From assembly GCA_025361445.1 (NCBI GenBank), contig JANYLP010000015.1, positions 1 to 44,053 on the forward strand: a stretch of 44,053 nt of DNA. The letters are read 5' to 3'. The stretch is from Coriobacteriia bacterium (lineage in GTDB: Bacteria; Actinomycetota; Coriobacteriia; Anaerosomatales; PALSA-660). Position numbers and translations under genes: made by a program. Under the pieces are notes generated by a model. It ran no database searches, was not told the DNA's origin, and saw nothing but the letters and a program-made list of their open reading frames with translations. Below are positions 7,075-25,100 of this stretch, piece by piece. How positions within the stretch are numbered: position 1 is the first letter of the stretch; the number at the start of each line of letters is the position of its first letter.

Positions 7075-8391
7075 TCAGGCGCCGGGCTTCGTGCGGCGCT
7101 CGATCATCGCCTTGCGCGCCGTGGCGCGCTCGGCCTCCCAGCCCTTCGAGCCGGCCTTGAAGAAGACACCTTCGGCGAGCCCTTCGGGCAGGTATCGCTG
7201 ATCCACCCAGCCATCCGGGAAGTCATGCGGATAGCGGTACGGGCCGTAGGACTCGGCTCCGGGTCGGTGCCTGTCGCGCAGGTGGTCCGGCACGGAGCGC
7301 GACGGACCCGTGCGCACGTCCTTCAGCGCCGAATCAATCGCGAGATACGACGCGTTGCTCTTGGGAGCGAGCGCGAGGTAGACGGCCGCCTGGGCCAGGT
7401 TGATGCGACACTCGGGCCACCCGATCGACTCCGCTGCCTTGAAGGCGGCCGCGGCGACCTGGATCGCCTGGGGGTCGGCGTTGCCGACGTCCTCACTCGC
7501 GAAGATGAGCATGCGGCGGGCGATGAACTTCGGGTCCTCGCCTCCGTGAACCATGCGGGCGAGGTAGTACACCGCCGCGTCCGGGTCGCTACCCCGCATC
7601 GACTTGATGAAGGCGGAGATCACGTCGTAGTGCGTGTCGCCGCGCTTGTCGTACGTGAGCTGCCGGGCCCCGCCAAGGCGTTCGAGCACGGCGACGTCGA
7701 TCTGCGCGCCCGGGCCAGCCTCGGCCGCCGCCTGTTCGAGGGTGTTGAGCGCCGCGCGCGCGTCCCCGCCTGCACGGAGCACGATCGCGTCCTCGGCCTC
7801 CGGCGCGAGCGGATTCGCCCCGGCAAGGCCGCGCTCGGCATCGGCAAGCGCGCCGCGCACGATCCGACGCACATCCTCGTCCGTCAGCGGGTGCAGCTCG
7901 ACCACACGCGAACGCGAGATGAGCGGCGCGTTGACCTCGAAGAACGGGTTCTCCGTCGTGGCACCGATGAGGATGACGAGCCGATCCTCGACCGCGTGCA
8001 GGAGCGCGTCCTGCTGCGACTTCGAGAAGCGGTGTATCTCGTCGATGAACAGGATCGTGCGCCTGCCCTGGAACGACAGTCGGTCGCGCGCGGTGTCGAT
8101 CGACTTCCTGATGTCCGCTACGCCCGAGCTGACGGCCGAGACCTCGGTGAAGGCGGCGGCCGTCGTGTTCGCGATGACCCTCGCCAGGCTCGTCTTCCCG
8201 CAGCCGGCGGGTCCGTACAGGATCAGTGAGCTGAGTTCGTCCCGCTCGATCGCCGCCCGCAGAGCCGTATCCGGCCCCACCGCCTGCTCCTGCCCGACGA
8301 ATTCGTCCAGCGAACGCGGACGCATCCTCGCCGCGAGTGGTGCTTCGCGAGCGAGGATGCTGTCGGTCGAATCGGAGAAGAGGTCAGTCAC
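7075..8391 (-). CDS. rarA: Replication-associated recombination protein A (RarA/MgsA AAA+ ATPase)
   Basis: PLAARMRP, GPAGCGKT, FIDEIHRF, GATTENP, YDVISAFIKSMRGSDPDAA and ASEDVGNAD motifs. Confidence 0.97.
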   Translation of the reverse strand: MTDLFSDSTDSILAREAPLAARMRPRSLDEFVGQEQAVGPDTALRAAIERDELSSLILYGPAGCGKTSLARVIANTTAAAFTEVSAVSSGVADIRKSIDTARDRLSFQGRRTILFIDEIHRFSKSQQDALLHAVEDRLVILIGATTENPFFEVNAPLISRSRVVELHPLTDEDVRRIVRGALADAERGLAGANPLAPEAEDAIVLRAGGDARAALNTLEQAAAEAGPGAQIDVAVLERLGGARQLTYDKRGDTHYDVISAFIKSMRGSDPDAAVYYLARMVHGGEDPKFIARRMLIFASEDVGNADPQAIQVAAAAFKAAESIGWPECRINLAQAAVYLALAPKSNASYLAIDSALKDVRTGPSRSVPDHLRDRHRPGAESYGPYRYPHDFPDGWVDQRYLPEGLAEGVFFKAGSKGWEAERATARKAMIERRTKPGA

Positions 8392-9315: not shown

Positions 9316-11085
9316 CTACTGCGTCCGCAGACGCAATTCCCCAAGTTGTGCAGCGCTGACCGCATCGGGCGCACCGGTCAGCGGACACGAGCCGGAACTC
9401 GTCTTCGGGAACGCGATGACGTCGCGGATCGAGGATGCGCCGGCGAGCAGCATGATCAGACGGTCGAGGCCCAGTGCGATGCCACCGTGCGGCGGCGCGC
9501 CATGCTTGAGCGCATCAAGAAGAAACCCGAACCGGCGCTGCGCGTCCTCATCCGTCATGCCCATGAGGCGGAAGACCTTCATCTGCAGCTCGGGATCGTG
9601 GACACGGAGCGTCCCACCGCCGATCTCGAGTCCGTTGATAACCAGGTCGTGCGAGTAGCCGCGCACGGCACCCGGATCGGTGTCGAGCAGAGGCAGGTCC
9701 TCCTCGAACGGACGCATGAACGGGTTGTGCTTGGCGTCCCAGCGCTTGTTCTCCTCGTCCCACTGGAACAGCGGGAAGTCGAGTACCCACAGAGCCGACC
9801 AGCGGGCGCGCGCCAGTTCGAGGTCATCGGCGAGGCGGAGACGCAGCCCGCCGAGCACGTCGTTCGCAACGGCGCGCGCATCGGCGACCATGCAGACCAG
9901 GTCGCCGGGCTCGACTCCGAGCGCGGACCTGAGCGTTGCCATCTCGTCCTCGGTGAAGAACTTGGCGACCGGGCTGCGGACCTCGCCCTCGGTCGTGAAT
10001 GCGACCCACGCGAGGCCCTTTGCACCGGCGTCGAGCACGAACTGGTTCAGGCCGTCGATGCGACTGCGACTCCAGTCGCCCGCACCCTTCGCGTTGATGG
10101 CCTTGATGGCTCCGCCCGCGGCGAGTGCGCCCGCGAAGACCTTGAACTCGGACTCCGCGAATACCGTCGACACGTCGACGAGCTCGAGCCCGAAGCGCGT
10201 GTCCGGACGGTCGCAGCCGTAGCGCTCCATGGCCTCGCTGTAGAGCATGCGCGGCAGCGGGACAGGCAGATCCTGTCCGGCCTCGTGCATGACCTCGTGC
10301 ATGACGTCCTCCATCATGGCGAGGACGTCGTCCTGCTCCACGAAGGACATCTCGATGTCGACCTGCGTGAACTCGGGCTGGCGGTCCGCCCGCAGGTCCT
10401 CGTCGCGGAAGCAGCGTGCGATCTGGTAGTAGCGCTCGACCCCCGCGACCATGAGCAACTGCTTGAACAGCTGCGGTGACTGCGGCAGCGCGTAGAACTC
10501 GCCCGGGCTCATGCGGGACGGCACGAGGAAGTCGCGTGCGCCTTCCGGCGTCGACTTCGTCAGTATCGGCGTCTCCACTTCCATGAAACCGCGATGCTCG
10601 AGCGACTTGCGGAACCGCTGGGTGACGCGGTCGCGGAGCACGAGCGCGGCGAGCACCTCGGGCCGGCGGATGTCGACGTAGCGGTACTTCAGGCGCAGCA
10701 CCTCGTCGACGTCGATCGCGGAATCGACCTCGAACGGCGGCGTGACGGACTCGTTCAGGACCTCCGCCGACGCGATGATGACCTCGACCTCGCCGGTGGC
10801 GAGGTTCGGATTGACCGTTCCGTCGGGACGCGGCCGAACGGTGCCCGTGAGCTTGACGACCCACTCGGTGCGTACGCGCTCCGCGGTCGCGAAGGCGGCG
10901 CCGGAGGCATCGGGGTCGAAGACGCACTGGACGAGTCCGCTGCGATCGCGGATGTCGATGAAGACGAGCCCGCCATGGTCGCGGCGGCGATGGACCCATC
11001 CGGCAAGCGTGACCTGCTCGCCGACGTTCTCGCGGCGGAGGTCGCCGGCTACGTGTGTTCTGATCGAATAGCGTGCGTCGAACAT
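9316..11085 (-). CDS. aspS: Aspartate--tRNA ligase, probably non-discriminating (Asp/Asn)
   Basis: [52 protein letters not shown] and [12 protein letters not shown] motifs. Confidence 0.98.
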
Positions 11086-12426
11086 CTAGGACCTTCCCTC
11101 GGACGGCGTACCGGAGACGGCGACATCACGCGCCAGGTACCTCTCGAAGAGCGCAGTGCGCACCTGGTCTTCGATCCCGTGCAGCGAGACGCGCCATTCG
11201 TTCTTATCGGTCATGTCGCGAACAGTGACCTCGCCTCTGGCGAGCTCATCCGGCCCCACGAATACGACGAGCAGGGAACCCAGCCGGTCGGCCGCCTTCA
11301 TCTGGGACTTCAGCGAGCGACCCTGATGATCCATCTCGGCGGGCACACCGGCGGAGCGCAACCGTTGCGTGACGGCGAACACCTCTGAGGCGAGTTCGGG
11401 AGCCGCGGATGCCACGAAAACGTCCGCGATCGCGGGCGCCGGGAGATCCACGCCCGCGGAGCGAAGGGCGAGCATGGTGCGCTCGAAGCCGAGCGCGAAG
11501 CCGAGGCCCGGCGTCGGCCGGCCGCCGTACATCTCGAAGAGGCGATCGTAGCGGCCGCCCCCGCCGATAGCGTTCTGGGCGCCCAGGCCCTCTGCCTGCA
11601 CCTCGAACACCGTGCGGGTGTAGTAGTCGAGGCCACGAACGAGCGACGTGTCCTCCTCGTAGGCGATGCCCAGCGCGTCCAGATGCGACTTGACAGCGGC
11701 GTAGTGCACAGCGCAGTCGTCGCACAGGCGGTCCCGAAGCACCGGCGCTCGCTTCATCGTCTCGCGACACGTCAGGTTCTTGCAGTCGAAGGCTCTCAGC
11801 GGGTTCGTGTCCGCGCGCCGGGCGCACTCGTCGCACAGCCCGGCCGCGTTGCCGCGGATGAACGCAGCCACCTCGGAGCGGTACGCGGGGCGACAGACCT
11901 CGTCTCCCATCGTGTTGATCAGTAGACGCATGGCGGACCGTGGGATCCCGGCAGCGGCGAAGAACTCCATGAGAAGCGCGATCGCCTCGGCATCCGCGGT
12001 CGGCTCCCCCATTCCGAGCGACTCGACGCCGATCTGCCAGAACTGGCGGCGACGTCCCGCCTGCGGACGCTCGTAGCGGAACATCGGGCCCGAGTAGTAG
12101 ACCTTGGCGGACTGGCCGTTGGCCGTGAGACCGTTTTCGAGGGCCGCGCGCACGATGGGTGCCGTGCCTTCAGGCCGCAGTGTCAGCGAGGTGGGAGGAG
12201 TGCCCTTGTCGTCGAAGGTGTACATCTCCTTGCCGACGATGTCCGTGGCCTCGCCGATACCGCGGACGAAGACATCGGTGTGCTCGAAGATCGGCGTGTA
12301 GACGGGCTCGTAGCCGTACCTCGCGAAGAGGTCCTGGGCGACGGCCAGCAGATGCTGCCACGCGCGCGCATCGGCGGGGAGCAGATCCGAGGTGCCCTTC
12401 GGGGCGCGGTATTCCGCCTTCGCCAT
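11086..12426 (-). CDS. hisS: Histidine--tRNA ligase
   Basis: LRPEGTA, FRYERPQAGR, LVRGLDYY and GGGRYD motifs. Confidence 0.98.
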   Translation of the reverse strand: MAKAEYRAPKGTSDLLPADARAWQHLLAVAQDLFARYGYEPVYTPIFEHTDVFVRGIGEATDIVGKEMYTFDDKGTPPTSLTLRPEGTAPIVRAALENGLTANGQSAKVYYSGPMFRYERPQAGRRRQFWQIGVESLGMGEPTADAEAIALLMEFFAAAGIPRSAMRLLINTMGDEVCRPAYRSEVAAFIRGNAAGLCDECARRADTNPLRAFDCKNLTCRETMKRAPVLRDRLCDDCAVHYAAVKSHLDALGIAYEEDTSLVRGLDYYTRTVFEVQAEGLGAQNAIGGGGRYDRLFEMYGGRPTPGLGFALGFERTMLALRSAGVDLPAPAIADVFVASAAPELASEVFAVTQRLRSAGVPAEMDHQGRSLKSQMKAADRLGSLLVVFVGPDELARGEVTVRDMTDKNEWRVSLHGIEDQVRTALFERYLARDVAVSGTPSEGRS

Positions 12427-12468
12427 GGTCGGGGTACTGCCTTTCGCGGGACTGGGATTCCGGCTGCG

Positions 12469-12477
12469 AGTGTAACA
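12469..12477 (-). promoter_or_regulatory. Extended -10 promoter (TGtTACACT) for hisS-aspS
   Basis: Minus strand ccTGtTACACTcgc about 45 nt upstream of the hisS ATG. Confidence 0.5.
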
Positions 12478-12514
12478 GGCACTCCGCGCGCGAGCGCTGG
12501 TCCTGAGAATGCGC

Positions 12515-12934
12515 CTAGGACTCGGTTTTCGCGCCCGGCTCCTCGACCCTGTTCAGCTGGAGAAGGTTCGTCGCGTCGACCGAGACGCACGCGACGCCGA
12601 TGATGACGCCGTCACGCCGCGCCGGACAGTAGGTCACGGAGTAGAGCCTGCGGGACCCGTCGGTGCCGTACCAACTCGCATCCCGGTAAACCTCACCCGC
12701 AAGCGCGTGGTCGATGTTGGCTTGAGCCGTACGTCGATCCTCCTCGAGCATCACCGTGTCGAGCAGACTGTCGCCCACGGCGACCTCGGTGCCGTACAGC
12801 ACGCGCACGGCGACCCGATGGGCTTCGTTGAAGGCCAGATACCGGTACTCACTGTTAACGAAGAACGCGGGGTCGGCGACCGCGTCGAGAAGCGCCTCTT
12901 GGGCGATGCGGTTGATGTCTCCGGAGATGTACAT
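12515..12934 (-). CDS. Stand-alone PAS domain protein (PAS_4-like)
   Basis: ALLDAVADPAFFVNSEYRYLAFNEA...ALAGE...DGSRRLYSVTYCPARRDGVIIGVACVSVDAT is a canonical PAS pattern. The upstream part of the 266-aa track ORF overlaps crcB and is probably not translated; start uncertain (12934 or 12979). Confidence 0.75.
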   Translation of the reverse strand: MYISGDINRIAQEALLDAVADPAFFVNSEYRYLAFNEAHRVAVRVLYGTEVAVGDSLLDTVMLEEDRRTAQANIDHALAGEVYRDASWYGTDGSRRLYSVTYCPARRDGVIIGVACVSVDATNLLQLNRVEEPGAKTES

Positions 12935-13028
12935 CGCTGCCCGACCCTTCACCTTGCTCCAGCACGGCGTTTCAACCATCCGGTCACCCTTCGAGTATCG
13001 CCCAGATCGACCGACACCGCACGCACTG

Positions 13029-13427
13029 CTACAGCACGGAGCGACCGAGGAAGATGCCGGCCGCCGCAGCCGCAAGACCGACCGCAAGCGAGCCGAGCGA
13101 GTACGCGGCCGCCATCCCGTACGAGCCGCGCAGCATGAGCTCGACCGACTCGAGCGCGAACGTCGAGAACGTCGTGTAGCCGCCGAGGAGTCCCACAGCA
13201 AGGAGCGGGCGCCACCAGCCAGGCCAGCCCAGCCGTGCCGCGGCGACCAGCAGAAGGCCGATCGCGAACGATCCCGTGGCGTTGATGAGGAACGTGTGCC
13301 AGGGGAACGAGGCATCCGCAGTCGGACCCATCAGCCGGCCGATGCCGTACCGAAGCGCGGAACCCGTTGCGCCCCCCGCGGCGACAAGCGCCAGATCGCG
13401 AATCGTCGCGTCCATGACCGCGGTCAC
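13029..13427 (-). CDS. crcB: Fluoride efflux channel Fluc/CrcB
   Basis: GGATGSALRY, FPWHTFLIN and GLLGGYTTFSTF motifs; GTGA overlap with the upstream MBL gene. Confidence 0.95.
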   Translation of the reverse strand: MTAVMDATIRDLALVAAGGATGSALRYGIGRLMGPTADASFPWHTFLINATGSFAIGLLLVAAARLGWPGWWRPLLAVGLLGGYTTFSTFALESVELMLRGSYGMAAAYSLGSLAVGLAAAAAGIFLGRSVL

Positions 13428-14062
13428 CGGGGCCAGAAGTAGTTATGACGGCTCTCGTGCCCGATCGTCGTGTCGGGGCCGTGGCCCGGATGGACGACCG
13501 TGGAGGGCGGCAACGACGCGAGCACGGCGATCGAGGCCCTCAAGGCGCGTGGATCGCCCCCCGGGAAGTCGGTGCGTCCTACGCTTCCGGCGAACAGCGT
13601 GTCCCCCGAAAACAGGTGCTCGTCCCCATCGAACCCGCTCGCCAGGAGACTGACCGAGCCCGGGGTGTGCCCCGGTGTGGCCCAAACCGAAAGGGTCAGA
13701 CCGCCCGCAGTGATGATGTCTCCGTCGGAGAGCAGCCGGTCGGGTGCGGGTGCGGCGAAGTCGAATCCGAACGCCGCTCCCCCGTTGTCCTCCGCGGACA
13801 TGATCGACTCGGCGTCATCCACGTTGACGAGAAGCGGCGCGCCGGTGGCTTTCACGACCTCCGCCGCCGCACCGAGATGGTCGAAATGGCCGTGCGTCAG
13901 CACGACCGCGGCGACCGGTCGGCCCGCGACCGCCTCGAGTACCCGAGCCGGTTCGGCAGCAGGGTCGATCACGACGAGCGGACCGCCCGACACGTCGGAG
14001 ACGATCCAGCAGTTGGTGTCGAGCTCGCCAAGGACGAGTCGCGTGACGGAGAGCGCGGTCAC
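13424..14062 (-). CDS. MBL-fold metallo-hydrolase (glyoxalase II-like, YcbL type)
   Basis: LTHGHFDH, TPGHTPG, FSGDTLF...GRTD and PGHG motifs. Start GTG 14062 overlaps the rel stop (GTGA). Confidence 0.92.
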   Translation of the reverse strand: MTALSVTRLVLGELDTNCWIVSDVSGGPLVVIDPAAEPARVLEAVAGRPVAAVVLTHGHFDHLGAAAEVVKATGAPLLVNVDDAESIMSAEDNGGAAFGFDFAAPAPDRLLSDGDIITAGGLTLSVWATPGHTPGSVSLLASGFDGDEHLFSGDTLFAGSVGRTDFPGGDPRALRASIAVLASLPPSTVVHPGHGPDTTIGHESRHNYFWPR

Positions 14063-16263
14063 GAGCGCTGCAAGCCGGGCGAGGGCATCATGCGGTCCGC
14101 CGAGAAGACGCCGTCGAGTCCGCGTACGCGCGCAAGGACGGCACCGAGCTGCTCCATGTTCCCCAGCTCGAACAAGAAGCGCATCGTGGCGATGCCCTGC
14201 CTGTCGGTGGCGATGTTGGCGGACAGCACGCTCACGCCCGCCTCGGCCAGCGCGACGGTTACATCGCGCAGAAGCGCCGTTCGGTCGCGCGCCTCGATGT
14301 AGATCTCCACCTGGTACGTGGTAGCGGCGTCGGTGTCCCACTCGACTTCGATGATGCGCTCCGGACTTGTGAGGAGGTCCTTTGCGTTCGGGCAGTCCTT
14401 CCGATGCACTGACACGCCGCGGCCGCGCGTCACGAAGCCGACGAGCGGGTCGCCGGGCACGGGGTTACAGCATCGAGCGAGGCGTACCAGCAGGTCGTCG
14501 ATCCCCTTGACGCGAACACCCGTGACCGACTTGCGGCGGTTGGATCTGGGAGCGATCATCGGGGTCGCGAGCGTGAACTCGGGCTTCTCCGGTTCGGCGG
14601 GGGCCGCCTCGGTCCCGGCGAGCAGCTTGATGAGCTTGCCCACGACCATCTTGGCGGAGACCTTGCCGGCCCCGATGTGGGCGACCAGATCGTCCGACTC
14701 GGCGAAGTTCATCTCTTTGGCGATCGCCGTGAGAGCCCTGACCCCCGCCGACGATCCGATCGAGAGCCCCTGCTTGCGAAGGATCTTCTGCAAATCGTCC
14801 TTGCCACAGGCAAGGTCATCGGTGCGGCTGGCTTTCGAGAAGAACGTGCGGATCTTGCTTCGCGCGCTCGAGGTGCGCACGATGTTGAGCCAGTCGCGGG
14901 ACGGTCCCGCGGAGCCTTTGTTCGTCATGATCTCGACGCGGTCACCCATCTGCAGCTCGTAGCCGAGCGGCACGATGGACCCGTTGATCTTCGCGCCGAC
15001 GGTGTGGTTGCCGATCTCGGTGTGGATCTGGTAGGCGAAGTCGATGGGAGTCGACCCTTTGCGTAGGCTGACCACATCGCCCTTGGGCGTGAAGACGAAC
15101 ACCTCGTCCTCGAACAGGTCGATCTTGAGCGCCTCCATGAACTCGCGAGGGTCCTTGAGCTCGGTCTGCCACTCGAGCATCTGCCGCAACCAGGCGAGAC
15201 GCTCGTCGAAGCTCTCGTCGCTGCGGCCGCCGTCCTTGTAGCGCCAGTGTGCCGCGATGCCGTACTCCGCGGTGCGGTGCATCTCCTCGGTACGGATCTG
15301 GAGTTCGAGGGGACGGCCCGCGGGGCCGATGACGGTCGTGTGCAGTGATTGGTACATGTTGAACTTCGGCATCGCCACGTAGTCCTTGAAACGCCCCGGC
15401 ACCGGCTTCCAGATGGAGTGGACCGTGCCGAGTGCGCCGTAGCAGTCCTTCACCGAGGCGACGATGATCCGCAGAGCGATCAGGTCGTATATCTCGTTGA
15501 AGTCCTTATCTTTCTGGGACATCTTCTGGTAGATGCTGTAGAAGTGCTTCGGCCGCCCCGAGATCTCGGCGTGGATGCCCACCTCACCAAGTTCCCGAGT
15601 CAGTTCGTCGATGACCTGCTTGAGATACGCCTCACGGGCGGCGCGGCTGTCGGACACGAGACGCTGTATCTGCTGATACTTCTGCGGCTCGAGCACCTTC
15701 ATGCACAGGTCCTCGAGCTCCCACTTGACCTGCTGGATCCCGAGCCGGTGCGCGAGCGGCGCGTAGATCTCCATTGTCTCGATCGCCTTGTCGCGCTGAC
15801 GCGTCGCGTCGAGGAACTCGATCGTCCGCATGTTGTGCAGGCGGTCGGCGAGCTTGATGAGGATGACGCGGATGTCCTTCGCCATGGCGATGAGCATCTT
15901 GCGCAGGTTCTGGGACTGAGCCTCGTCGCGCGAATCGAATTTGATCTTGCCGAGCTTGGTGACGCCGTCCACGAGCGCCGCGACCTCTTCGCCGAACGCG
16001 GCGCGGACCTGCGCGACCGTGACCTTGCTGTCTTCCACCGTGTCGTGGAGCAGGCCCGCTATCAGCGTCTCCATGTCGAGGTGCAGCTCAGCAAGGATGC
16101 CGCATGCTTCGACCGGGTGCGTGATGAACGGCTCGCCGGAGTTGCGCATCTGCCCCTCGTGCGCGGCGGCGGCGAAATCGTAGGCGCGGCGCAGCAGTGC
16201 GATATCCACCGACGGGTTGTAGGCGGAGACGCGCTTCTCGAGCTGCTCCATCGTGAGGGTCAC
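14059..16263 (-). CDS. rel: Bifunctional (p)ppGpp synthetase/hydrolase Rel (long RSH)
   Basis: HD motif LLHDTVED, KLADRLHNMRT, RFKD, YQSLHT, ELQIRT, TGS domain, CCNPVPGD and ACT domain. Confidence 0.98.
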   Translation of the reverse strand: MTLTMEQLEKRVSAYNPSVDIALLRRAYDFAAAAHEGQMRNSGEPFITHPVEACGILAELHLDMETLIAGLLHDTVEDSKVTVAQVRAAFGEEVAALVDGVTKLGKIKFDSRDEAQSQNLRKMLIAMAKDIRVILIKLADRLHNMRTIEFLDATRQRDKAIETMEIYAPLAHRLGIQQVKWELEDLCMKVLEPQKYQQIQRLVSDSRAAREAYLKQVIDELTRELGEVGIHAEISGRPKHFYSIYQKMSQKDKDFNEIYDLIALRIIVASVKDCYGALGTVHSIWKPVPGRFKDYVAMPKFNMYQSLHTTVIGPAGRPLELQIRTEEMHRTAEYGIAAHWRYKDGGRSDESFDERLAWLRQMLEWQTELKDPREFMEALKIDLFEDEVFVFTPKGDVVSLRKGSTPIDFAYQIHTEIGNHTVGAKINGSIVPLGYELQMGDRVEIMTNKGSAGPSRDWLNIVRTSSARSKIRTFFSKASRTDDLACGKDDLQKILRKQGLSIGSSAGVRALTAIAKEMNFAESDDLVAHIGAGKVSAKMVVGKLIKLLAGTEAAPAEPEKPEFTLATPMIAPRSNRRKSVTGVRVKGIDDLLVRLARCCNPVPGDPLVGFVTRGRGVSVHRKDCPNAKDLLTSPERIIEVEWDTDAATTYQVEIYIEARDRTALLRDVTVALAEAGVSVLSANIATDRQGIATMRFLFELGNMEQLGAVLARVRGLDGVFSADRMMPSPGLQRS

Positions 16264-16316
16264 GAACGCTCCCTTGCGCGCGACGGTCGCGCGCCGCTTG
16301 CGGGGCCGGTGTGAGG

Positions 16317-16325
16317 ATTCTAGCA
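16317..16325 (-). promoter_or_regulatory. Extended -10 promoter (TGcTAGAAT) for the rel operon
   Basis: Minus strand gcTGcTAGAATcct just after the recJ stop. Confidence 0.55.
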
Positions 16326-16332
16326 GCGAGCG

Positions 16333-19300
16333 CTACGCCGTAGGCAGGATCGGCCGGTCGAAGGCCGCGAGAAGCTCCTCGGCGCGTGCCGCGAGCACCC
16401 ACGTACGGAACTCCGCGAACTCCTCGGCCTCCTCTACGCCTTCGGCGTATCGGACGGACGAAGTCAGGTCGACTTTCCCGTCGACGGGCAGCAGTGAGAG
16501 GCGTCGGTAGGCGCCTGAACCCTCCCCTGTCACGAGTCCCACTTCACGGAACACGCCGAGGCCCGAGGATGCGCCGCGGTCGGTCATGCGCGACCTCGGG
16601 CGGCGCTTCTTCACCTCTGCAGCGAGCTCTGCGTTCGTGACCTCGACCCAGCCATCCGCGGCGGAGTTGCCCATCGCCCTGAGTGCGGCGTACAGGGCCC
16701 GCAACTCCTCGAGATCGGGTGCGCCCGATTCGAGCACCAGCTCGTTGACCCGGCCGTCGCGCTCGCCGAACAGCAGGTGAACCGTCGCCTGGTCGCCATC
16801 GCGTCCCGCCCGGCCGCACATCTGGTTGAACTCGACCCGGTTGAAGGGCAGGTGGTAGAGAGCGACGTGCCGGACGTCCGGGATATCGACGCCTTCACCG
16901 AACGCACTCGTCGCGACGATCGCCGTGATGTCGCCGGCGCGGAAGGCCCTCTCGACCGCGTGACGGGCTGCACGGGACACGCCACCGTTGTAGAAGGCCA
17001 CGCGCTGTGCGAGATGCGGGCTCGCATCGCGCAGTCGCATGGCGAGCCGCACCGATTCGTCACGGCTGTTCACGTAGACGATGACCTTCTCCCCGCGCGC
17101 GGCGATGGCCGCCAGGTGCCCGGCCTTGTCGGCGAGACCGCGCCGATCGGCCACGCGCAGGTTGTCGCGGCGTGTGTCATCGAGAACGAGCGCGTCGATC
17201 CCGAGCGTACTGCGGATCACGGAGGCGGCGTCGTCGCCCGCGGTGGCGGTCACGGCGCAGACGACGGGGTGCCCGAGCGTCTCCAACGCGTCGCCGAGGC
17301 GCGAGTAGGCGGGGCGGTGGCCGGCACGCGCGAGCCCCACGTGATGCGCCTCATCGACGACGATGAAGCGCACGCGACTGCTCTGGGCGAAACGGGCCGC
17401 ATGGCGTTCGAGGAACTCCGGCGTGGTGAGCAGTACGTCGAGGCCGCCCTCGGCAAGCGCGGCGAAGATCTCGTCGCGGCCGCCGGGAGCCGTCTCGCCG
17501 GTGATCACCTTCACCGCCAGACCGAGGGAAGCGAACGCCTCGGTGAGGTGGAACGCCTGGTCGGCGACGAGCGCGCGCAGCGGATAGACGAACACGCTCG
17601 CCTCCCCGCGCGCGAGTGCGACGCGAGCGGCGTGCGACTGGAACACGAACGACTTGCCGCGGCCGGTGGCCATGACCGCGAGGCACGAACGGCCCGCGGC
17701 GAGGTGTGCCAACGCCTCGACCTGTGCGGGATGAGGGACCCGCTCGCCGATGAGCGCGCGGGTGATCTCGGCATCGCGCTCCGCGGGGTCCAGCGCCGAG
17801 AGCTCTGCGCGCCGGGCCACCCGCGCTTCTGTCTCTCGCTCCGCCTCGTCCTCGGCCCCGGGCCGGGAGAACAGCACGTTGACGCCGCGCGCACCCGCCT
17901 CGTCGCCGCCGGTGACGTCCGTGACGCTGACGTCCCACTCCGCGCCGGAGTCGAGGGCGGGCGCAAGCACCGATGCGAGGCGCCGATTGAGGAAGCCGAT
18001 CTGCTCCCCCGTCGGGGCGAGGACCGCGATCGCGTTGGGGTCGAACTCGTTCTCCGGCTGCCGCACGAGCCGGAGCGGCATCCCCGGCTGCAGGCGCGCC
18101 ACGACATCCTGCCGGCCTTCGAAACTGACGCCGGCCAGCTTTGTGTGGAACGACTCGGCGTCGGCTATCCCCTCGTACTCACCGCGTGCCAGTATCCGGG
18201 CTGCGTCGGCGAAGAGCTCCTCGACCAGTTCCGCCGCCGGAGCGTCCACGGGGGCCTCGTGCACGGCGATGCTGCGCACGACTAGCTGCACCCGCTCCCG
18301 GCCGCGCCACTCGTCCGTCTCGAGCGAGTATGCGAGGTCGACCGCAGCCTCGCGACCAGCCAACGCAGCGGCCTCGGGAACCCGGAACGCGATCGCCGGG
18401 ATCGAGGAGATACCGTCGTACGCCTCGAACTTGAGATGTTCGGCCGCCTTCCCGACGAGGGAGCGCTGGGACATGAACACACCGCGCGTCCCCATGAGCG
18501 GTCGGGCGTTTCCCTGTCCGAACGGTTCGAGAGCGGACAGCGCGACCGACAATCGGCGCGTCGCGTCGTGGAGCGGTAACTCCGCATCGACGACGATGCG
18601 GCTCCCGAATGCCTCCGCGGGCAGCGCGGCGAGCGCGTTCTGCAACCGATCGGCGAACGCTCCCAGCGAAGCGACGGGCAGCGTCGCACCCACCGCGGCC
18701 GCATGTCCACCGAAGCGGGTCAGCAGGTCGGAGCACGCTTGAAGAGCCGCGTGCAGGTCGACCTGGCCGACGCTGCGTCCGCTTCCGCGAGCCTCCCCAT
18801 CCTCGATGCTGAAGATGAGCGCCGGGACGCCGTACCGTCCGGCCACCCGCGACGCCACGATGCCACGCACGCCCTCGTGCCACCCCTCGCCGGCCAGAAC
18901 AAGCACGCGGCAATCGGGCCGCCATGCAACCTCGGCCGCGCGCAGCGCCTCCTCGGACAAGTCGGCCTCCGCAGCCTGGCGCACGGTGTTGTAGCCGTCC
19001 AACGCCGACGCTATCTCCGCGGCGCGGACGGCATCGTCGGTCAACAGCAGTTCCAGCGCTTCGGCCGGATCCGCGATGCGCCCGGCGGCATTGAGCCGCG
19101 GGGCGAGCCCGAACGCGATCCTGTCCGATGTCAGGGTCGCGATGTCGACGCGACCCACGCTGCATAGCGCGGCGATCCCGCGACGCGGCGACGTGCGCGC
19201 TTTGGCGAGGCCGGCTGCCACGAGCGCGCGATTCTCGTCGAGTACCGGAACGATGTCCGCCACCGTTCCGATCGCGGCAAGGTCGGTGAGCTCGAGCCAG

Positions 19301-19962
19301 GCGTCCGGGAACCCGAGCCGCGCGCCCACGGCGGCGATGACCTTCAGGGCGACGCCGGCTCCGGCCAGGCCCGTGAAGGCGTAGGCGCCGAGCTTTGGAT
19401 CGCACACGGGCACGCCATCGGGCAGTCCCTCGCCCGGTTCGTGGTGGTCGGTCACGACGACGTCGACGCCCGCAGCACGGAGCATGCCGACCTCGCGCGC
19501 GCTGCCGATGCCACAGTCAACGGTGATGACGAGACCCGGGTTCATGGTGAGCACTCGGGCCACTGCCGCGTCCGAGAGCCCGTAGCCTTCTTCGAAACGG
19601 TGCGGGACGACCGCGCTCACGGTAGCGCCCATCGCCTCAAGGCCGCGGCAAGCGACCGCGGCCGCCGTCAGGCCATCGACGTCGAAGTCCCCGAACACGA
19701 CGATGGACCGGCCTTCCCGCACGGCAGCAGCGACCGCGTCGGCGCATGCGGGCATGCCGGGCAGCGTCTCGGGGTCGCGCCAGTCTCGCGCGAGGTCCGG
19801 GCTCAGAAAGCGCCGCGCCTCATCGGCCGTGGTGACTCCGCGCAGGGTGAGCACCCGCGCCACCACCGGCTCGAGCCCCGTGGAGGCCGCCAGTGCCGAG
19901 ACCGCGCCCTCGTCAACAGGGGCGCAGCTCCAAAGCGTGGATGAGTGGTGGGGGCTGGACAC
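16333..19962 (-). CDS. recJ: RecJ exonuclease fused to a HIRAN domain and a RecQ-like SF2 helicase, ending in a RecJ C-terminal-like domain
   Basis: DHH/DHHA1 motifs GDFDVDG, TVDCG, TDHH, GTVADIV, PRLNAAGR, GSGRS, FGGH; OB fold; HIRAN-like FHTKLAGVSFEG...RQPENEFDPNAIAV...IGFL; helicase motifs ATGRGKS, YPLRALVADQ, DEAH, TATA, ATSAFGEGVD, QMCGRAGRDG. Confidence 0.93.
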   Translation of the reverse strand: MSSPHHSSTLWSCAPVDEGAVSALAASTGLEPVVARVLTLRGVTTADEARRFLSPDLARDWRDPETLPGMPACADAVAAAVREGRSIVVFGDFDVDGLTAAAVACRGLEAMGATVSAVVPHRFEEGYGLSDAAVARVLTMNPGLVITVDCGIGSAREVGMLRAAGVDVVVTDHHEPGEGLPDGVPVCDPKLGAYAFTGLAGAGVALKVIAAVGARLGFPDAWLELTDLAAIGTVADIVPVLDENRALVAAGLAKARTSPRRGIAALCSVGRVDIATLTSDRIAFGLAPRLNAAGRIADPAEALELLLTDDAVRAAEIASALDGYNTVRQAAEADLSEEALRAAEVAWRPDCRVLVLAGEGWHEGVRGIVASRVAGRYGVPALIFSIEDGEARGSGRSVGQVDLHAALQACSDLLTRFGGHAAAVGATLPVASLGAFADRLQNALAALPAEAFGSRIVVDAELPLHDATRRLSVALSALEPFGQGNARPLMGTRGVFMSQRSLVGKAAEHLKFEAYDGISSIPAIAFRVPEAAALAGREAAVDLAYSLETDEWRGRERVQLVVRSIAVHEAPVDAPAAELVEELFADAARILARGEYEGIADAESFHTKLAGVSFEGRQDVVARLQPGMPLRLVRQPENEFDPNAIAVLAPTGEQIGFLNRRLASVLAPALDSGAEWDVSVTDVTGGDEAGARGVNVLFSRPGAEDEAERETEARVARRAELSALDPAERDAEITRALIGERVPHPAQVEALAHLAAGRSCLAVMATGRGKSFVFQSHAARVALARGEASVFVYPLRALVADQAFHLTEAFASLGLAVKVITGETAPGGRDEIFAALAEGGLDVLLTTPEFLERHAARFAQSSRVRFIVVDEAHHVGLARAGHRPAYSRLGDALETLGHPVVCAVTATAGDDAASVIRSTLGIDALVLDDTRRDNLRVADRRGLADKAGHLAAIAARGEKVIVYVNSRDESVRLAMRLRDASPHLAQRVAFYNGGVSRAARHAVERAFRAGDITAIVATSAFGEGVDIPDVRHVALYHLPFNRVEFNQMCGRAGRDGDQATVHLLFGERDGRVNELVLESGAPDLEELRALYAALRAMGNSAADGWVEVTNAELAAEVKKRRPRSRMTDRGASSGLGVFREVGLVTGEGSGAYRRLSLLPVDGKVDLTSSVRYAEGVEEAEEFAEFRTWVLAARAEELLAAFDRPILPTA

Positions 19963-19970
19963 GGTTCAGG

Positions 19971-19979
19971 ATGCTAGCA
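19971..19979 (-). promoter_or_regulatory. Extended -10 (TGcTAGCAT) 8 nt upstream of the recJ GTG; near-leaderless
   Basis: Minus strand cTGcTAGCATcctgaaccGTG; no SD sequence between the -10 and the start. Confidence 0.45.
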
Positions 19980-20064
19980 GACGGGCCCGACACGCTGACG
20001 TTCGCGTGCCGGGCCCGACGGGAGCACCTACCGGCACCGCATCAGCGGCGCGTCGCTTGACGCA

Positions 20065-20964
20065 TCACTTGGCAGCGGCGAACTTCTTTGCGAGCGCCTG
20101 GTAGCGCGGCTCGCGCTCCTTCCACATCGCGTAGAGCGGTGCTGCGACGCCAACCGACGAATATGCGCCGGAGAGCAGTCCGATGGTGAGCGCGAATGCG
20201 AAGTCCTTCAGCGTGTCCTGCCCGAAGATGAGCAGGCACACGACCGGGATCAGCGACGACAGGCCGGTGTTGATCCAGCGCGCGAGCACCTGGTTCAGCG
20301 AGTCGTTGGCCATCGACATGAAGGTCTTTTTGGTCAGGCTCTGGGTGTTCTCACGGATCCGATGGAACACGACGATCGTGTCGTAGAGCGAGTATCCGAG
20401 GATCGTCAGGAGCGCGGCGACCGTGTTCGGCGTCAGCTCCCGTCCCAGCAGGGCATAGAGGCCGAGCGTGATGAGAGCGTCATGCACGAGTGCGACGACG
20501 CCCGTGACGGCCATCTTGTACTCGAACCGGATCGAGACGTAGAGCAGGATCGCGATGATCGACACGGCGAGAGCGAGCATCGCAGCGTTCGTGATCCCGG
20601 CTCCCCACTCGGGCCCGATCGTGCTTACCTGCGTGTCGGCGGCAGCGACGCCGAGGGCGGTGGCCACCTCGGCGGCCTGCCTTCCGGCGACCGTCGCACT
20701 CGGCTCGGTCGAGCGGACGATGAAGCCGGAGCCGATGGTCTGGACGGTCCCGTCGACGATGTTGGCCTTGACGACCGCGTCACGGACCTCCGTGAGTGTC
20801 ACGGCCGTCGAGCCGCTGAGCGTGATCTTGGTGCCGCCCTTGAACTCGTATCCGAGGGTCAGGCCCTTGAATGCGAGCGAACCGATGGCGACCGCCAGAA
20901 CCACGGACGAAGCCAGGAAGAGCCACTTGCGATTGCCCATGAAGTCGATGTAGGGCCTACGCAT
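20065..20964 (-). CDS. secF: Protein translocase subunit SecF
   Basis: GYEFKGG, HDALI, LTILGYSLYDTIVVFHRIRE and GAYSS motifs. Confidence 0.97.
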   Translation of the reverse strand: MRRPYIDFMGNRKWLFLASSVVLAVAIGSLAFKGLTLGYEFKGGTKITLSGSTAVTLTEVRDAVVKANIVDGTVQTIGSGFIVRSTEPSATVAGRQAAEVATALGVAAADTQVSTIGPEWGAGITNAAMLALAVSIIAILLYVSIRFEYKMAVTGVVALVHDALITLGLYALLGRELTPNTVAALLTILGYSLYDTIVVFHRIRENTQSLTKKTFMSMANDSLNQVLARWINTGLSSLIPVVCLLIFGQDTLKDFAFALTIGLLSGAYSSVGVAAPLYAMWKEREPRYQALAKKFAAAK

Positions 20965-22576
20965 CTGCGCGACCGCCCTTCACGCCGAAGAAAGCGGGGA
21001 TCTTGGCGACCACGCTCTCCGAGAGAAGGATGACCATCGGGCGCGTGAAGAGCAGCGCGATAGCCATGTCGCACACGATACCGATCATGAGCGTGAGCGC
21101 GAAGCCCTTGACCGTGCCGCTCGCGAACAGGAACAGCGGGATCGCGCTGGCGAACGTCACGGCGTCGGCGTCGAGCGAAGTCAGGATCGCGTGCTTCGAG
21201 CCCGACTTCGCAGCCGTGCGCGGGGTGCGGCCCATCGCGATCTCTTCCTTGTAGCGCTCGAAGATCAGGATCGACGTGTCGGCCGCGAGACCGATCGATA
21301 GCACGATGCCGGCGATACCCGGCAGCGAGAGCGCGTACTGGCCAGCATGGGAGAGCAGCGAGAGCAGACCCAGGTAGACGACCGCGAAGGCACCGAGCGA
21401 GAACCACGAGAGCACGCCGAACCCGCGGTAGTAGATCCCGAGGTAGATGCAGACGATCACGAGCCCGACAAGGGCGGCCAGTATGCCCTTCGCGAGCGCG
21501 TCCTGGCCGAGCGTCGGGCCGACACTCTCGGTCTGAGAAGCCTGCAGGTTGACGGGCAGGGCGCCCGACTTGAGGATCGCAGCGAGCGTCTTGGCCTCGT
21601 CGGCGGTGAAGCTGCCACTGATCTCGGTCTTGCCGTCCGGGATGGAGCTCAGTACCGACGGGGCCGACTTCACGATGCCGTCGAGCACGATCGCGACGCG
21701 CGCCCGGGTTGGTGCCGCCTTGGCGGTCACCTTGGCCCAGATGTCGGTGCCCGCCGGATTGAAGGTCATGTTGACGACGTATCCGGGCTTCAGCTTATCG
21801 CCGCTCGCACCGGCCGAGGCGTCGGTGATGACCTCGCCGGTCATGAAGGCCTTGTAGGTACCGGGGACCATGACGTAGCCATCCTGGATCAGGCCCTGCG
21901 TCGTGGTGTCGAGGCTGGAGACCTCGAGGAACTCGAGCTGACCGGTCGAGCCGAGCGCCTTGAGCGCCGCCTGCGAGTCCTTGACTCCCGGCAGCTGCAC
22001 GAGGATGGCCTTGCTGTCGCTCTCGAGCTGAACGGTGGCCTCCGACACGCCCAGTCCGTTCACGCGGTTGCTCATGATCGTGAGCGCGCGCGACATCGCC
22101 GCAGCATCCGCCGGCTTGGTCGGTGTCAGCGTCACGGACAGTCCACCGCGAAGGTCGAGGCTCTGCGTGATGCTGGGGCGCCCCTCTTCCATCGTGAACT
22201 CCTGCGCGTGCACGGTGAATGTCGTCCCGTACGAGACGAGCGCTTCGCGCACAGGCAGACCGCCAACGAACACCGGCTCCGTCGTGTCGGCGGAAGCAAC
22301 GATGCGCCAGCTTTCACCAGCGGTCGAGGTCGATTCCGTGACCCGCGAGAGCGTGGCCAGCGTCGTCCCGGGCTGCCCTGAAGCGACGACCTCCACTGCG
22401 CCGCCATTGAGCACGATGCTCGCGGCGGACTGTGTGAGCGTGAAGCTCTGCTTCGCGGCCGCGGTCCTCCACGAAACCGTGTCGGACTGCTTGAGTGGCA
22501 GCAGCGAGAAGAGGGATCCGATCAGCAGTACGATCAGGCCCCCGACGGCGAGTAGGTTCTTCTGCCTCGATTTCAT
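20957..22576 (-). CDS. secD: Protein translocase subunit SecD with N-terminal extracytoplasmic insertion
   Basis: LDLRGG, RVNGLGVSE, VQLPG, AIVLDG, GALP, VGPTLG, LPGIAG, ILIFER and KGFA motifs. Confidence 0.96.
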   Translation of the reverse strand: MKSRQKNLLAVGGLIVLLIGSLFSLLPLKQSDTVSWRTAAAKQSFTLTQSAASIVLNGGAVEVVASGQPGTTLATLSRVTESTSTAGESWRIVASADTTEPVFVGGLPVREALVSYGTTFTVHAQEFTMEEGRPSITQSLDLRGGLSVTLTPTKPADAAAMSRALTIMSNRVNGLGVSEATVQLESDSKAILVQLPGVKDSQAALKALGSTGQLEFLEVSSLDTTTQGLIQDGYVMVPGTYKAFMTGEVITDASAGASGDKLKPGYVVNMTFNPAGTDIWAKVTAKAAPTRARVAIVLDGIVKSAPSVLSSIPDGKTEISGSFTADEAKTLAAILKSGALPVNLQASQTESVGPTLGQDALAKGILAALVGLVIVCIYLGIYYRGFGVLSWFSLGAFAVVYLGLLSLLSHAGQYALSLPGIAGIVLSIGLAADTSILIFERYKEEIAMGRTPRTAAKSGSKHAILTSLDADAVTFASAIPLFLFASGTVKGFALTLMIGIVCDMAIALLFTRPMVILLSESVVAKIPAFFGVKGGRADA

Positions 22577-22685: not shown

Positions 22686-23426
22686 CTAGAGCAGCTTCGT
22701 ACCGTTTATCTCGAGATGGAACGTCGCGTCGAGCACCGAAGCAGCCGCGCGACACATCTGCATGCGGGAGAGGAATATCTCGAAGTACTCCATGACCTGG
22801 CTCGCCGAGGTGTCGATGTCGAGTTCCAGCGTGAGCGTGCGCGCCGCGCCGTCCACGCGCAGGAACGACCGGCTCGCGGCGTGGTTGACGCGGTCGTGGA
22901 TGTCGAACGCCGCGGGATCGGGATTACGCACCCGTGTGTGATGGACGTCGGACTTGTCGGCGATGATCGTCGCGGCCCCTACCGGGTTGGCGGGGGTGCC
23001 GAACTCCTCTTCATGGTTGCCGAGCGCATTCATGATGTGGATGGTCTCGATGGGGTCCATCCCGAGTTCGCGCAGCACCTCGCGCGCGAGCATCGCCGAG
23101 CTGACGCCGTGGTGGTCACGTCCGATGCAGTTGCCGATGTCGTGAGTGAAGCCGGCGATCTCGGCGAGCTCCACCTGGCGCTCCTCGAAGCCCAGCCGCC
23201 GCATGATGTTCCCGGCGATGTGGGAGACCAGGTTCGCGTGACGGAAGCCGTGCTCCGTGTAGCCGATGGCGCCAAGGTACTCGTCGGCGACCTCGATCAT
23301 CGCCTTGACGTCCGGAGAGGCCACCACGTCCGCGATGGTCACGCGGCGCCACACCGTCGGCGACGGTGCGGGCGCGGGCGGCTCGACGTCCCCGGCCGCC
23401 GAGGTGGGGATCCCGGTGTCACTCAT
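22686..23426 (-). CDS. HD-domain phosphohydrolase
   Basis: GYTEHGFRH...HDIGN...H...ADKSD metal-binding motifs; overlaps the yajC stop by 8 nt. Confidence 0.88.
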   Translation of the reverse strand: MSDTGIPTSAAGDVEPPAPAPSPTVWRRVTIADVVASPDVKAMIEVADEYLGAIGYTEHGFRHANLVSHIAGNIMRRLGFEERQVELAEIAGFTHDIGNCIGRDHHGVSSAMLAREVLRELGMDPIETIHIMNALGNHEEEFGTPANPVGAATIIADKSDVHHTRVRNPDPAAFDIHDRVNHAASRSFLRVDGAARTLTLELDIDTSASQVMEYFEIFLSRMQMCRAAASVLDATFHLEINGTKLL

Positions 23427-23709
23427 CGACGGGAGCGACGTCCTCGGTCATGCGTTCGATGATGGCGCGCTTCGTGAACTGCCCGACGACACCGGGGGCG
23501 ATCTCGATGTTCAGGACGTCGCCGTCGACGGAGCGCAGCGTGCCGATGAGGCCGCCGGCGGTCATCAGTCGATCACCGGGAGCGAGCGCAGCGAGCATCT
23601 CGGTCGACTTCTTGCGCTGCGTCTGCTGGGGACGGAACCACAGGAAGTAGAACACTCCCCCTATGAGAACCATGTAGACGATGAAGGAGGTGATCTCGGA
23701 ACTGCTCAT
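23419..23709 (-). CDS. yajC: Preprotein translocase subunit YajC
   Basis: MSSSEITSFIVYMVLIGGVFYFLWFRPQQTQRKK...LAPGDRLMTAGGLIG; this is the C-terminal part of the 440-aa track ORF. GGGAG RBS before ATG 23709. Confidence 0.93.
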   Translation of the reverse strand: MSSSEITSFIVYMVLIGGVFYFLWFRPQQTQRKKSTEMLAALAPGDRLMTAGGLIGTLRSVDGDVLNIEIAPGVVGQFTKRAIIERMTEDVAPVDE

Positions 23710-23815
23710 GAGGAGTGACTCCCGTCGATACGGGCACGAGATCCGAGTCCGCGGGACCCGTGCGATGGTGTCCGGTGCGCGCAACGGCCGCGAGAACAGC
23801 GGTCGGAGCGTTCCG

Positions 23816-23824
23816 ATGATAGCA
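23816..23824 (-). promoter_or_regulatory. Extended -10 promoter (TGcTATCAT) for yajC-HD-secDF
   Basis: Minus strand ggTGcTATCATcgg in the tgt/yajC gap. Confidence 0.5.
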
Positions 23825-23876
23825 CCGCCACTCGCGCGCTCGTGTGCGCACACGCGAGGGCGCGCGCCCGCCATGG

Positions 23877-25100
<1,224 letters not shown>

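Follow-up and report, generated by a model that had tools for sequence, protein, structure and literature searches.

Can both halves of a two-protein resection team reside in a single bacterial polypeptide? RecQ and RecJ are the textbook pair of RecF-pathway resection: RecQ translocates 3′ to 5′, and RecJ, which requires a 5′ tail, is a 5′ to 3′ exonuclease for single-stranded DNA (ssDNA). The question is raised by a gene at positions 16333..19962 (minus strand) of a 44,053-nucleotide stretch of DNA from a Coriobacteriia bacterium (contig JANYLP010000015.1, assembly GCA_025361445.1; this whole stretch is referred to below as the window). The gene encodes a RecJ that is continued, in the same chain, by a HIRAN domain, a RecQ-like helicase core and a winged-helix tail. 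The analysis presented here suggests that this protein is the housekeeping RecJ of the organism provided with a motor of its own and, by analogy with the separate enzymes, that coupled unwinding and 5′ resection is its likely function.

The fused RecJ and its domains

The fused gene and its parts are as follows.

16333..19962, minus strand: fused recJ gene, 1209 aa plus stop (RecJ, HIRAN, RecQ-like helicase, winged-helix tail)
18271..19872, minus strand: complete RecJ core, aa 31-564 (TIGR00644, Pfam, motifs, structure match)
19267-19704, minus strand: DHH domain, aa 87-232 (Pfam)
18631-18909, minus strand: DHHA1 domain, aa 352-444 (Pfam)
18274-18591, minus strand: RecJ_OB domain, aa 458-563 (Pfam, E 7e-24)
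17944..18153, minus strand: HIRAN domain, aa 604-673 (PF08797, E 1.3e-12)
17749..17856, minus strand: two predicted helices, about aa 703-738, at the joint between HIRAN and helicase, without an assigned family (AF2 whole-chain model)
17227..17730, minus strand: helicase lobe 1, aa 745-912 (DEAD, PF00270, E 1e-20)
16795..17103, minus strand: helicase lobe 2, aa 954-1056 (Helicase_C, PF00271, E 6e-22)
16336..16785, minus strand: tail, aa 1060-1209 (AF2 fold, structure search, hhalign)
16471-16716, minus strand: winged helix in the tail, about aa 1083-1164 (AF2 model)

The N-terminal part of the chain matches the NCBIfam recJ model TIGR00644 at 454.4 bits (cut-off 396.9), with residues 31-564 lying on positions 2-545 of the 546-position profile, and this end-to-end coverage means that the RecJ part is complete by itself. 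The RecJ motifs are intact (D92/D94/D96, D149, D172-H173-H174, D236 and G418-G419-H420) and invariant in 70 of 70 cluster representatives of the fused family, each of at least 1000 residues. The whole-chain model matches the RecJ structures 8y30, 2zxo and 5f54 with Z scores of 39.6-42.6. The fused protein is a member of the RecJ family, and 5′ to 3′ ssDNA exonuclease activity is predicted for it. A single TIGR00644 match, at 457.3 bits, is present in the whole genome (115 contigs, 1.57 Mb, 91% completeness).

The motor that follows is a two-lobed helicase of superfamily 2 (SF2). Lobe 1 carries motif 0 (Q747), a Walker A motif GRGKS (767-771), DEAH (870-873), HRPAY (882-886) and TAT (905-907), and lobe 2 carries motif VI in the form QMCGRAGR (1047-1054); Walker A, DExH and motif VI are kept in 63 of the 70 representatives. 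RecQ models align at residues 744-1099. The best solved matches of residues 571-1209 all belong to the RecQ family, headed by Cronobacter, E. coli and Deinococcus RecQ (E 1e-26 to 1e-28; the nearest solved sequences to the helicase are RecQ 4tmu/1oyw, E ~1e-28) and followed by RECQ4, RECQ5, WRN, BLM and RECQ1. The profile alignment to RecQ 4tmu contains the RecQ-type stretch DEAH...RPxY, and the SNF2-rel_dom model of Pfam reaches an E-value of only 0.055. Judged by its motifs, the helicase is of the RecQ kind, without passing the curated RecQ tests (see below), and motor activity is predicted.

Between nuclease and motor lies the HIRAN domain, recognized by PF08797 at 47.8 bits against a gathering score of 24.7 (51.8 bits in the genome-wide profile search, in which the fused recJ is the sole HIRAN gene). 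The HIRAN domain of HLTF binds the free 3′-OH end of DNA, and it is the human HLTF HIRAN (2mzn/4xzf) that is the nearest solved sequence to the domain described here (E 9e-4), the two having R-x-P-x-N-x-x-D-x-N-A-I in common. In the AF2 whole-chain model helical connectors flank HIRAN on both sides; the joint helices correspond to residues 670-689 and 693-705 in the numbering of the public gene product P0002 (+33 for the numbering used here) and are predicted with pLDDT 77-94. The HIRAN columns hold ~80 residues in 48 of the 70 representatives and few or none in 22, and Pfam finds the domain in 27 of 40 fused relatives. Because many carriers are without it, HIRAN is an accessory part, presumably one for targeting. 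One fused relative (P0198) has, at residues 647-682 within its HIRAN region, a LysM match (E 3.9e-9), which is odd for a cytoplasmic repair protein.

All these domains are encoded in a single open reading frame (ORF) of 1209 codons on the minus strand, with a GTG start and zero internal stops. The public gene call gives a product of 1176 aa beginning at V34. The relatives conserve the protein from approximately residue 3-11 onwards, which makes the GTG at 19962 the likelier start; no clear Shine-Dalgarno sequence was seen upstream of it in the 102-base gap to secF (19963-20064). The whole-chain AF2 model has a pLDDT of 89.4 and a pTM of 0.71, and since no stretch falls under pLDDT 50, the linkers are predicted to be structured rather than floppy.

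The junctions between the domains are supported in two ways. A second assembler, applied to four runs of a single sediment study, gave contigs that match the window exactly (0 differences, 0 indels); one contig from X1 spans 17548-20100 and another from X3 spans 16200-18667, so that every domain junction is bridged by a single contig. Since the window may itself derive from these four runs, their agreement is not independent support, which has to come from other genomes that hold the same frame. Of 41 genomes sampled from the order, one of them being the window's own, 29 hold at least query residues 38-1202 in one stop-free frame. The gene is cut at contig ends in eight (G002, G003, G006, G008, G017, G023, G037 and G040). 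It is broken by TGA codons in G001 and G024 (each 51% complete), several in the former and 8 in the latter, which could reflect sequencing error, decay or an alternative reading of TGA. G031 has the RecJ half only, split into two pieces, and G004 (78% complete) gave no match. On this evidence the fused gene is confirmed as real and conserved, no artefact of assembly. The preliminary description of the window had proposed a single 1209-aa ORF in the order RecJ, HIRAN, SF2 helicase and tail, with RecQ-type motifs and neither an RQC zinc site nor HRDC, and had considered the protein likely to be the only RecJ of the cell; its domain ranges agree with those of Pfam and NCBIfam. All of this has been borne out, the middle region does match HIRAN, and neither a stop nor a misassembly appears at the domain junctions, either in the contigs of the second assembler or in the 29 relatives.

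Proposed coupled resection and its alternatives

The activities assembled in this chain suggest a sequence of events in which HIRAN would first grip the 3′ end at a double-strand end or gap. The helicase would then load on the 3′-ended strand and move 3′ to 5′ into the duplex, while the displaced 5′-ended strand would pass to the RecJ part of the chain and thread into its hole. Finally, the 3′-tailed ssDNA would be handed to RecOR and RecA; both recO and recR are present in the genome as partners for such a product. Both activities would run the same way along the duplex, which makes the fusion geometrically sensible. The mechanism advanced in the preliminary description (holding the 3′ end, unwinding, and digesting the 5′ strand) is thus a plausible one.

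Several other repair genes bear on how this proposal should be weighed.

Contig C41:5111-6376 (locus L002 1429-2694), minus strand: separate RecQ-family gene, 421 aa (DEAD, Helicase_C, RecQ_Zn_bind)
Contig C14, ~9400-15000 (loci L026, L027): AddAB/AdnAB-type pair, adjacent genes that both have a PD-(D/E)XK nuclease domain at the C-terminal end, one also with UvrD_C
Window 7075-8391, minus strand: rarA/mgsA, in the same window as the fused recJ
Window 33249-34322, minus strand: ruvB, in the same window as the fused recJ

Several observations weigh against coupled resection by a RecQ-type motor. On one hand, the helicase remains under the cut-offs of both curated RecQ models (151.2 bits against 219.8 for recQ_fam, TIGR00614; 169.4 bits against 640.2 for recQ, TIGR01389). 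Pfam finds neither RecQ_Zn_bind (PF16124) nor HRDC in the fused protein at E<=0.1, the last cysteine of the chain lies at or before residue 1049, and the aromatic residues of the RecQ loop are absent from the alignment to 4tmu. HRDC is also missing from many RecQ relatives. Taken together, these features mean that polarity and unwinding are assumed by analogy. On the other hand, the genome retains a separate RecQ (375.8 bits, over the RecQ-family cut-off, without winged helix or HRDC), encoded directly upstream of xseA, the gene for the large subunit of exonuclease VII, together with an AddAB/AdnAB-like pair. The preliminary description had asked whether carriers lack recQ, recBCD or adnAB, and for this genome the answer is negative. 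The fused motor is accordingly not needed for these activities and the fused RecJ is not the sole resection device of the cell: it replaces neither RecQ nor the main processor of double-strand ends. Furthermore, 7 of the 70 representatives have a degenerate, dead helicase next to intact RecJ motifs, and these forms, together with the remnant found in Bacilli (see below), indicate that the block can work, or be tolerated, without ATP hydrolysis. Finally, no biochemistry for any fused member was found in the literature, in line with the preliminary description, which knew of no characterization of this architecture.

The presence of the AddAB/AdnAB-like enzyme, which is available for double-strand ends, is also one of the arguments for a one-chain RecQ/RecJ acting as a processor of stalled forks rather than as an end resector. 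At blocked forks in E. coli, nascent lagging strands are degraded by RecQ and RecJ. In the fork version, HIRAN would hold the 3′ end of the nascent leading strand, the helicase would peel off the nascent lagging strand, and RecJ would degrade it from its 5′ end. The nearest solved HIRAN is that of HLTF, a fork remodeller, and the window also contains rarA/mgsA and ruvB. However, of five genomes checked from other Coriobacteriia families four lack HIRAN, as do Collinsella and Eggerthellaceae, and with so many carriers deprived of it, the core job of the protein cannot depend on this domain. We consider a dedicated fork processor unlikely, although the domains and motifs agree equally well with such a role; it would differ from the end-resecting enzyme only in its preferred substrate, and the two are compatible.

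The dead helicases introduce a second alternative, according to which the block would be mainly a scaffold that binds DNA or a partner, or an ssDNA translocase that feeds RecJ, ATP hydrolysis being auxiliary. Consistent with this, the two Thermotogota forms have an extension of ~480 residues without any Pfam match, Bacilli retain only a remnant, and the title of a paper on S. aureus RecJ (Gao et al. 2026, Protein Sci 35:e70484, as cited in PMC13527009) speaks of 'CTD-mediated functional divergence'. Nevertheless, every ATPase and helicase motif is kept here and in the 63 representatives mentioned above, which argues for selection for catalysis and makes this alternative rather improbable.

An anti-phage helicase-nuclease akin to the DpdF- or PsyrT-type RecQ-like helicases is very improbable: the PADLOC models of DpdF and PsyrT do match the helicase core (E 1e-50 to 1e-55), but the match is confined to residues 739-1100 and amounts to generic RecQ-like similarity, the neighbours are secDF, relA, hisS and aspS, and the protein is the only RecJ of the genome, vertically conserved across the class. 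As to an assembly or gene-calling artefact that fused separate recJ and helicase genes, the few broken frames described above for G001, G024 and G031 stand against the identical second-assembler contigs and an uninterrupted frame in 29 of 41 relatives, including the single-contig genomes G010 and G032, and against fusions in G113, G200, G076 and G110, which are single-contig genomes from other families, so that this explanation has practically no chance of being correct.

Origin and distribution of the fused form

The tail of the fused protein connects it with the long RecJ proteins of Firmicutes, whose C-terminal domain is described by PF10141 (ssDNA-exonuc_C). The AF2 model of the tail, built with 30 aligned tails from other genomes (pLDDT 88.6), comprises two helices, a winged helix and two closing helices, with the terminus RPILP. 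When this model was compared with 48,161 representatives of the PDB (VIA-align), S. aureus RecJ (8y30_A) came second with a Z score of 10.2, with 119 residues aligned (model 1-143 on chain 633-756, rmsd 5.8). It is the sole top row that spans nearly all of the tail, the others (for example CAP, Z 10.5) covering only a winged-helix core of 63-80 residues, and the 50 rows of this search contain no RecQ chain that would tie the tail to the RQC winged helix. For the chain as a whole, the family profile scores 8y30 highest among solved structures (611.9 bits, against 499 for Deinococcus RecJ and 431 for Thermus RecJ). Likewise, 710 of the 756 residues of 8y30 find an aligned partner in the whole-chain model (Z 42.6; at rmsd 17.8, hence not superposed as one rigid body), as compared with 489-501 for the Thermus and Deinococcus RecJ proteins, which are without the C-terminal domain.

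Sequence profiles lead in the same direction. PF10141 matches 6 of 40 fused relatives, among them P0161 (31.2 bits against a cut-off of 26.4, residues 994-1169 on profile positions 32-185), P0180 (31.1 bits against the same cut-off, residues 1063-1151 on 101-181) and P0184 of Peptococcus simiae (26.2 bits). A hidden Markov model (HMM) built from the C-terminal domains of 14 long RecJ proteins, defined as those with 185-258 residues after the OB domain, matches 31 of 75 fused proteins (best E 3e-11), and in each of them the strongest part of the match lies in the tail; in P0161, P0243 and P0129 the match starts at HMM position 7-9, which corresponds to the start of helicase lobe 2. In an atlas look-up of the tail a PF10141 cluster ranked fifth (score 0.91, 153 shared features), a result to be taken as a lead only. 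The clearest result was obtained with hhalign, in which 12 Bacilli C-terminal domains (the three scanned, from Listeria, S. mitis and Paenibacillus, carry PF10141 with E 1e-32 to 3e-54) align with the tail alone at E 4.7e-13 and with lobe 2 plus tail at E 9e-15 (Prob 98.4, 196 columns), the controls giving E 0.11 for lobe 1, 0.57 for HIRAN and 0.43 for a reversed template.

The alignment of lobe 2 plus tail follows the lobe in order along its full length. In it, 'QLFDyRg' of Bacilli falls on 'LxVxDxRG' of the fused family, in which D939 and R941 (D939-x-R941) are invariant; both are shared by Bacilli, and different residues stand there in RecQ. The middle of lobe 2 is gapped out in Bacilli, the last strand of the lobe is represented by 'VVLYHLP' opposite 'vvllDlP', the GRAGR residues of motif VI are deleted, and then the helices, the winged helix and the closing helix align. 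The tail is thus a winged helix homologous to the Firmicutes RecJ C-terminal domain, the resemblance noticed in the preliminary description being upheld by the structure match, the HMM and hhalign. It may bind duplex DNA or a partner; a complex prediction that paired aa 30-570 (RecJ core) and aa 1075-1209 (tail) gave a score of 0.00 in two runs without controls, which is uninformative either way.

Because the Bacilli domain keeps the first and last elements of lobe 2 without its motifs, the C-terminal domain of Gram-positive RecJ appears to be a remnant of the helicase module. This reading is preferred since it is much harder to explain how a helicase could have been built around a pre-existing stub than how one could have decayed. 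In the preliminary description the HIRAN-helicase block had been regarded as inserted inside RecJ. The topology has stood, as the helicase does lie between the RecJ core and the tail; the polarity is probably the reverse, because the alignment of the Bacilli domain extends back through lobe 2, of which motif VI and the central part have been lost. We infer that the block of HIRAN, helicase and winged helix joined RecJ early in Gram-positive-type lineages and that Bacilli keep a decayed remnant, in which case the seven dead-helicase forms and those of Thermotogota would be decay intermediates.

This connection has to be balanced against several results. Pfam, PF10141 included, finds nothing in the tail of the window's own protein at E<=10, nor is this protein among the 31 matched by the C-terminal-domain HMM, and the link of its tail to the Firmicutes domain rests on profiles and fold. 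Lobe 2 alone is not significantly similar to the Bacilli domains in hhalign (E 0.021). A Foldseek search of the tail against the PDB gave no match at E<=1e-3, just weak winged-helix regulators. A profile of 30 tails against PDB sequences did not retrieve 8y30 at E<=10, only a stretch of WRN motif VI, and the full-length family profile reaches the second stretch of 8y30 (651-731) with 7.7 bits and an i-Evalue of 5.4. Lastly, in a RecJ-core tree of 106 rows (quick LG+G4, unrooted, with a poorly resolved backbone) fused, long and short forms are interleaved, and fused-with-HIRAN needs at least 7 changes on starred branches; this tree leaves gain and loss unpolarized. It omits 15 of 80 loci (3 cut or broken, 12 near-duplicates), and its architecture labels, derived from length, are crude: L064 and L104 were labelled 'fusedHIRAN' without any HIRAN or helicase match in Pfam, and L077 runs off its contig.

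The loci L064 and L104 belong to Petrotogaceae and Thermotogae metagenome-assembled genomes (MAGs), and in both the RecJ core is followed by the ~480-residue extension already mentioned. The best tblastn segment of L104 aligns with query residues 11-1206 at 34%, which indicates that the extension is probably a strongly decayed helicase module. It may tentatively be proposed, with somewhat less than even confidence, that the fused form is the older RecJ in Actinomycetota, Bacillota, Thermotogota and Armatimonadota and PF10141 a fossil of lobe 2 plus winged helix. Under this proposal, the living fused forms would be self-contained ATP-driven 5′-resection machines gripping the 3′ end by HIRAN, and the dead-helicase forms decay intermediates.

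The fusion is class-wide in Coriobacteriia and occurs also in other phyla, so the suspicion in the preliminary description that the architecture might be common in the lineage was justified. Out of 7996 candidates scored in the homologue search, 4266 were significant. The best 120, at 59-100% identity, all have RecJ_OB, Helicase_C and HIRAN, derive mostly from Coriobacteriia MAGs and, where named, are called only 'single-stranded-DNA-specific exonuclease (RecJ)'. In a sample of 251 genomes of the class (at least 85% complete) a match at E<=1e-45 was found in 250, the exception being 86% complete, and five genomes of other Coriobacteriia families all have RecJ and helicase in one ORF of 1110-1265 residues, with HIRAN in one. 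Across the phylum, 30 of 301 sampled genomes carry the module of HIRAN, helicase and tail: the 24 sampled Coriobacteriia, without exception, and six small genomes of other Actinomycetota classes. The latter match from query residue 6-10, HIRAN therefore included, in frames of 1201-1279 residues; in the other 271 genomes the module was not found with this query.

The best 150 matches to residues 571-1209 in a library of 1.8 billion representative proteins include 69 proteins of at least 1000 residues, matched at ~550-1270, which are fusions. Named carriers include Peptococcus simiae, Anaerosinus/Selenobaculum gibii, a Bacillota MAG, an Armatimonadota MAG and Candidatus Oleimmundimicrobium americanum, the last with HIRAN. 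Gut genera are represented by Collinsella ureilytica, Collinsella sp. An7, a C. aerofaciens MAG and an Eggerthellaceae bacterium. A scan of two of them (C. ureilytica and the Eggerthellaceae bacterium) found no HIRAN. Contigs assigned to a 'Treponemataceae bacterium' (L057) and to an 'uncultured Klebsiella sp.' (L127) also have a Collinsella-like or fused RecJ, which in L127 breaks after 348 residues, and are probably mis-binned.

Gene neighbourhood and comparison with known systems

The immediate neighbours of the fused gene, all identified by Pfam, are the following.

20957-22576, minus strand: secD, upstream neighbour
20065-20964, minus strand: secF, upstream neighbour
14059..16263, minus strand: relA/spoT, downstream neighbour (HD_4, RelA_SpoT, TGS, ACT)

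On one strand, the gene order is ruvB ... queA, tgt, yajC, an HD-domain gene, secD, secF, the fused recJ, relA/spoT, an MBL-fold gene, a PAS gene, hisS, aspS ... rarA/mgsA ... alaS. This is the usual Gram-positive recJ neighbourhood, and the housekeeping secDF-recJ-rel locus named in the preliminary description is confirmed by its Pfam matches. The genes queA, tgt and queH lie between rarA/mgsA and ruvB. In the same region, a 440-aa ORF at 23419-24741 (minus strand) matches YajC only at residues 353-428 and overlaps tgt (23877-25058, minus strand); the real yajC is probably much shorter, the long ORF being an effect of high G+C content.

A natural fusion of the RecQ-RecJ type offers a direct handle on the coupling of unwinding with 5′ degradation, as well as on the role of a bacterial HIRAN domain, in a class that includes the human-gut Collinsella and Eggerthellaceae. 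Since databases label the fusion plain "RecJ", pathway reconstructions of its carriers miss a helicase. The link to PF10141 offers a possible origin and testable ideas for the RecJ C-terminal domain of Staphylococcus and Bacillus. The sequences are already public as 'RecJ', and no published description of the fusion was found in a full-text literature that covers few subscription journals.

With respect to the separate RecQ and RecJ of the RecF(OR) pathway in E. coli and D. radiodurans, the same two activities are predicted here, the RecJ part is over its cut-off, the helicase core is nearest the RecQ structures 4tmu, 1oyw and 4q47, and recO and recR are present. However, one chain takes the place of two proteins, the fused helicase is under the RecQ cut-offs, lacks the Zn subdomain and HRDC and is accompanied by HIRAN, and the host genome still keeps a separate short RecQ. 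The long RecJ proteins of Firmicutes with PF10141 (S. aureus 8y30; Listeria, Streptococcus, Paenibacillus) include the best match of the family profile, but they have only ~185-250 residues after the OB domain, against 645 in the fused RecJ, and are without HIRAN, lobe 1 and motif VI, all three of which are present here. Like HLTF and Rad5, the fused protein carries HIRAN and an SF2 ATPase in one chain, HIRAN lying on the N-terminal side; unlike them, it has a RecQ-like motor instead of an SNF2 motor, no RING, and a nuclease. The coupling of a motor to a nuclease in one machine is shared with WRN, a RecQ helicase with a 3′ to 5′ exonuclease whose helicase core is among the best matches of the fused helicase, and with AddAB, RecBCD and AdnAB. 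It is also found in S. aureus DinG, which is reported to combine an exonuclease and a helicase (PMC12345164). What sets the fused RecJ apart from all of these is the nuclease itself, which is of the DHH/RecJ type, with a predicted 5′ to 3′ polarity, and not DnaQ-like or PD-(D/E)XK.

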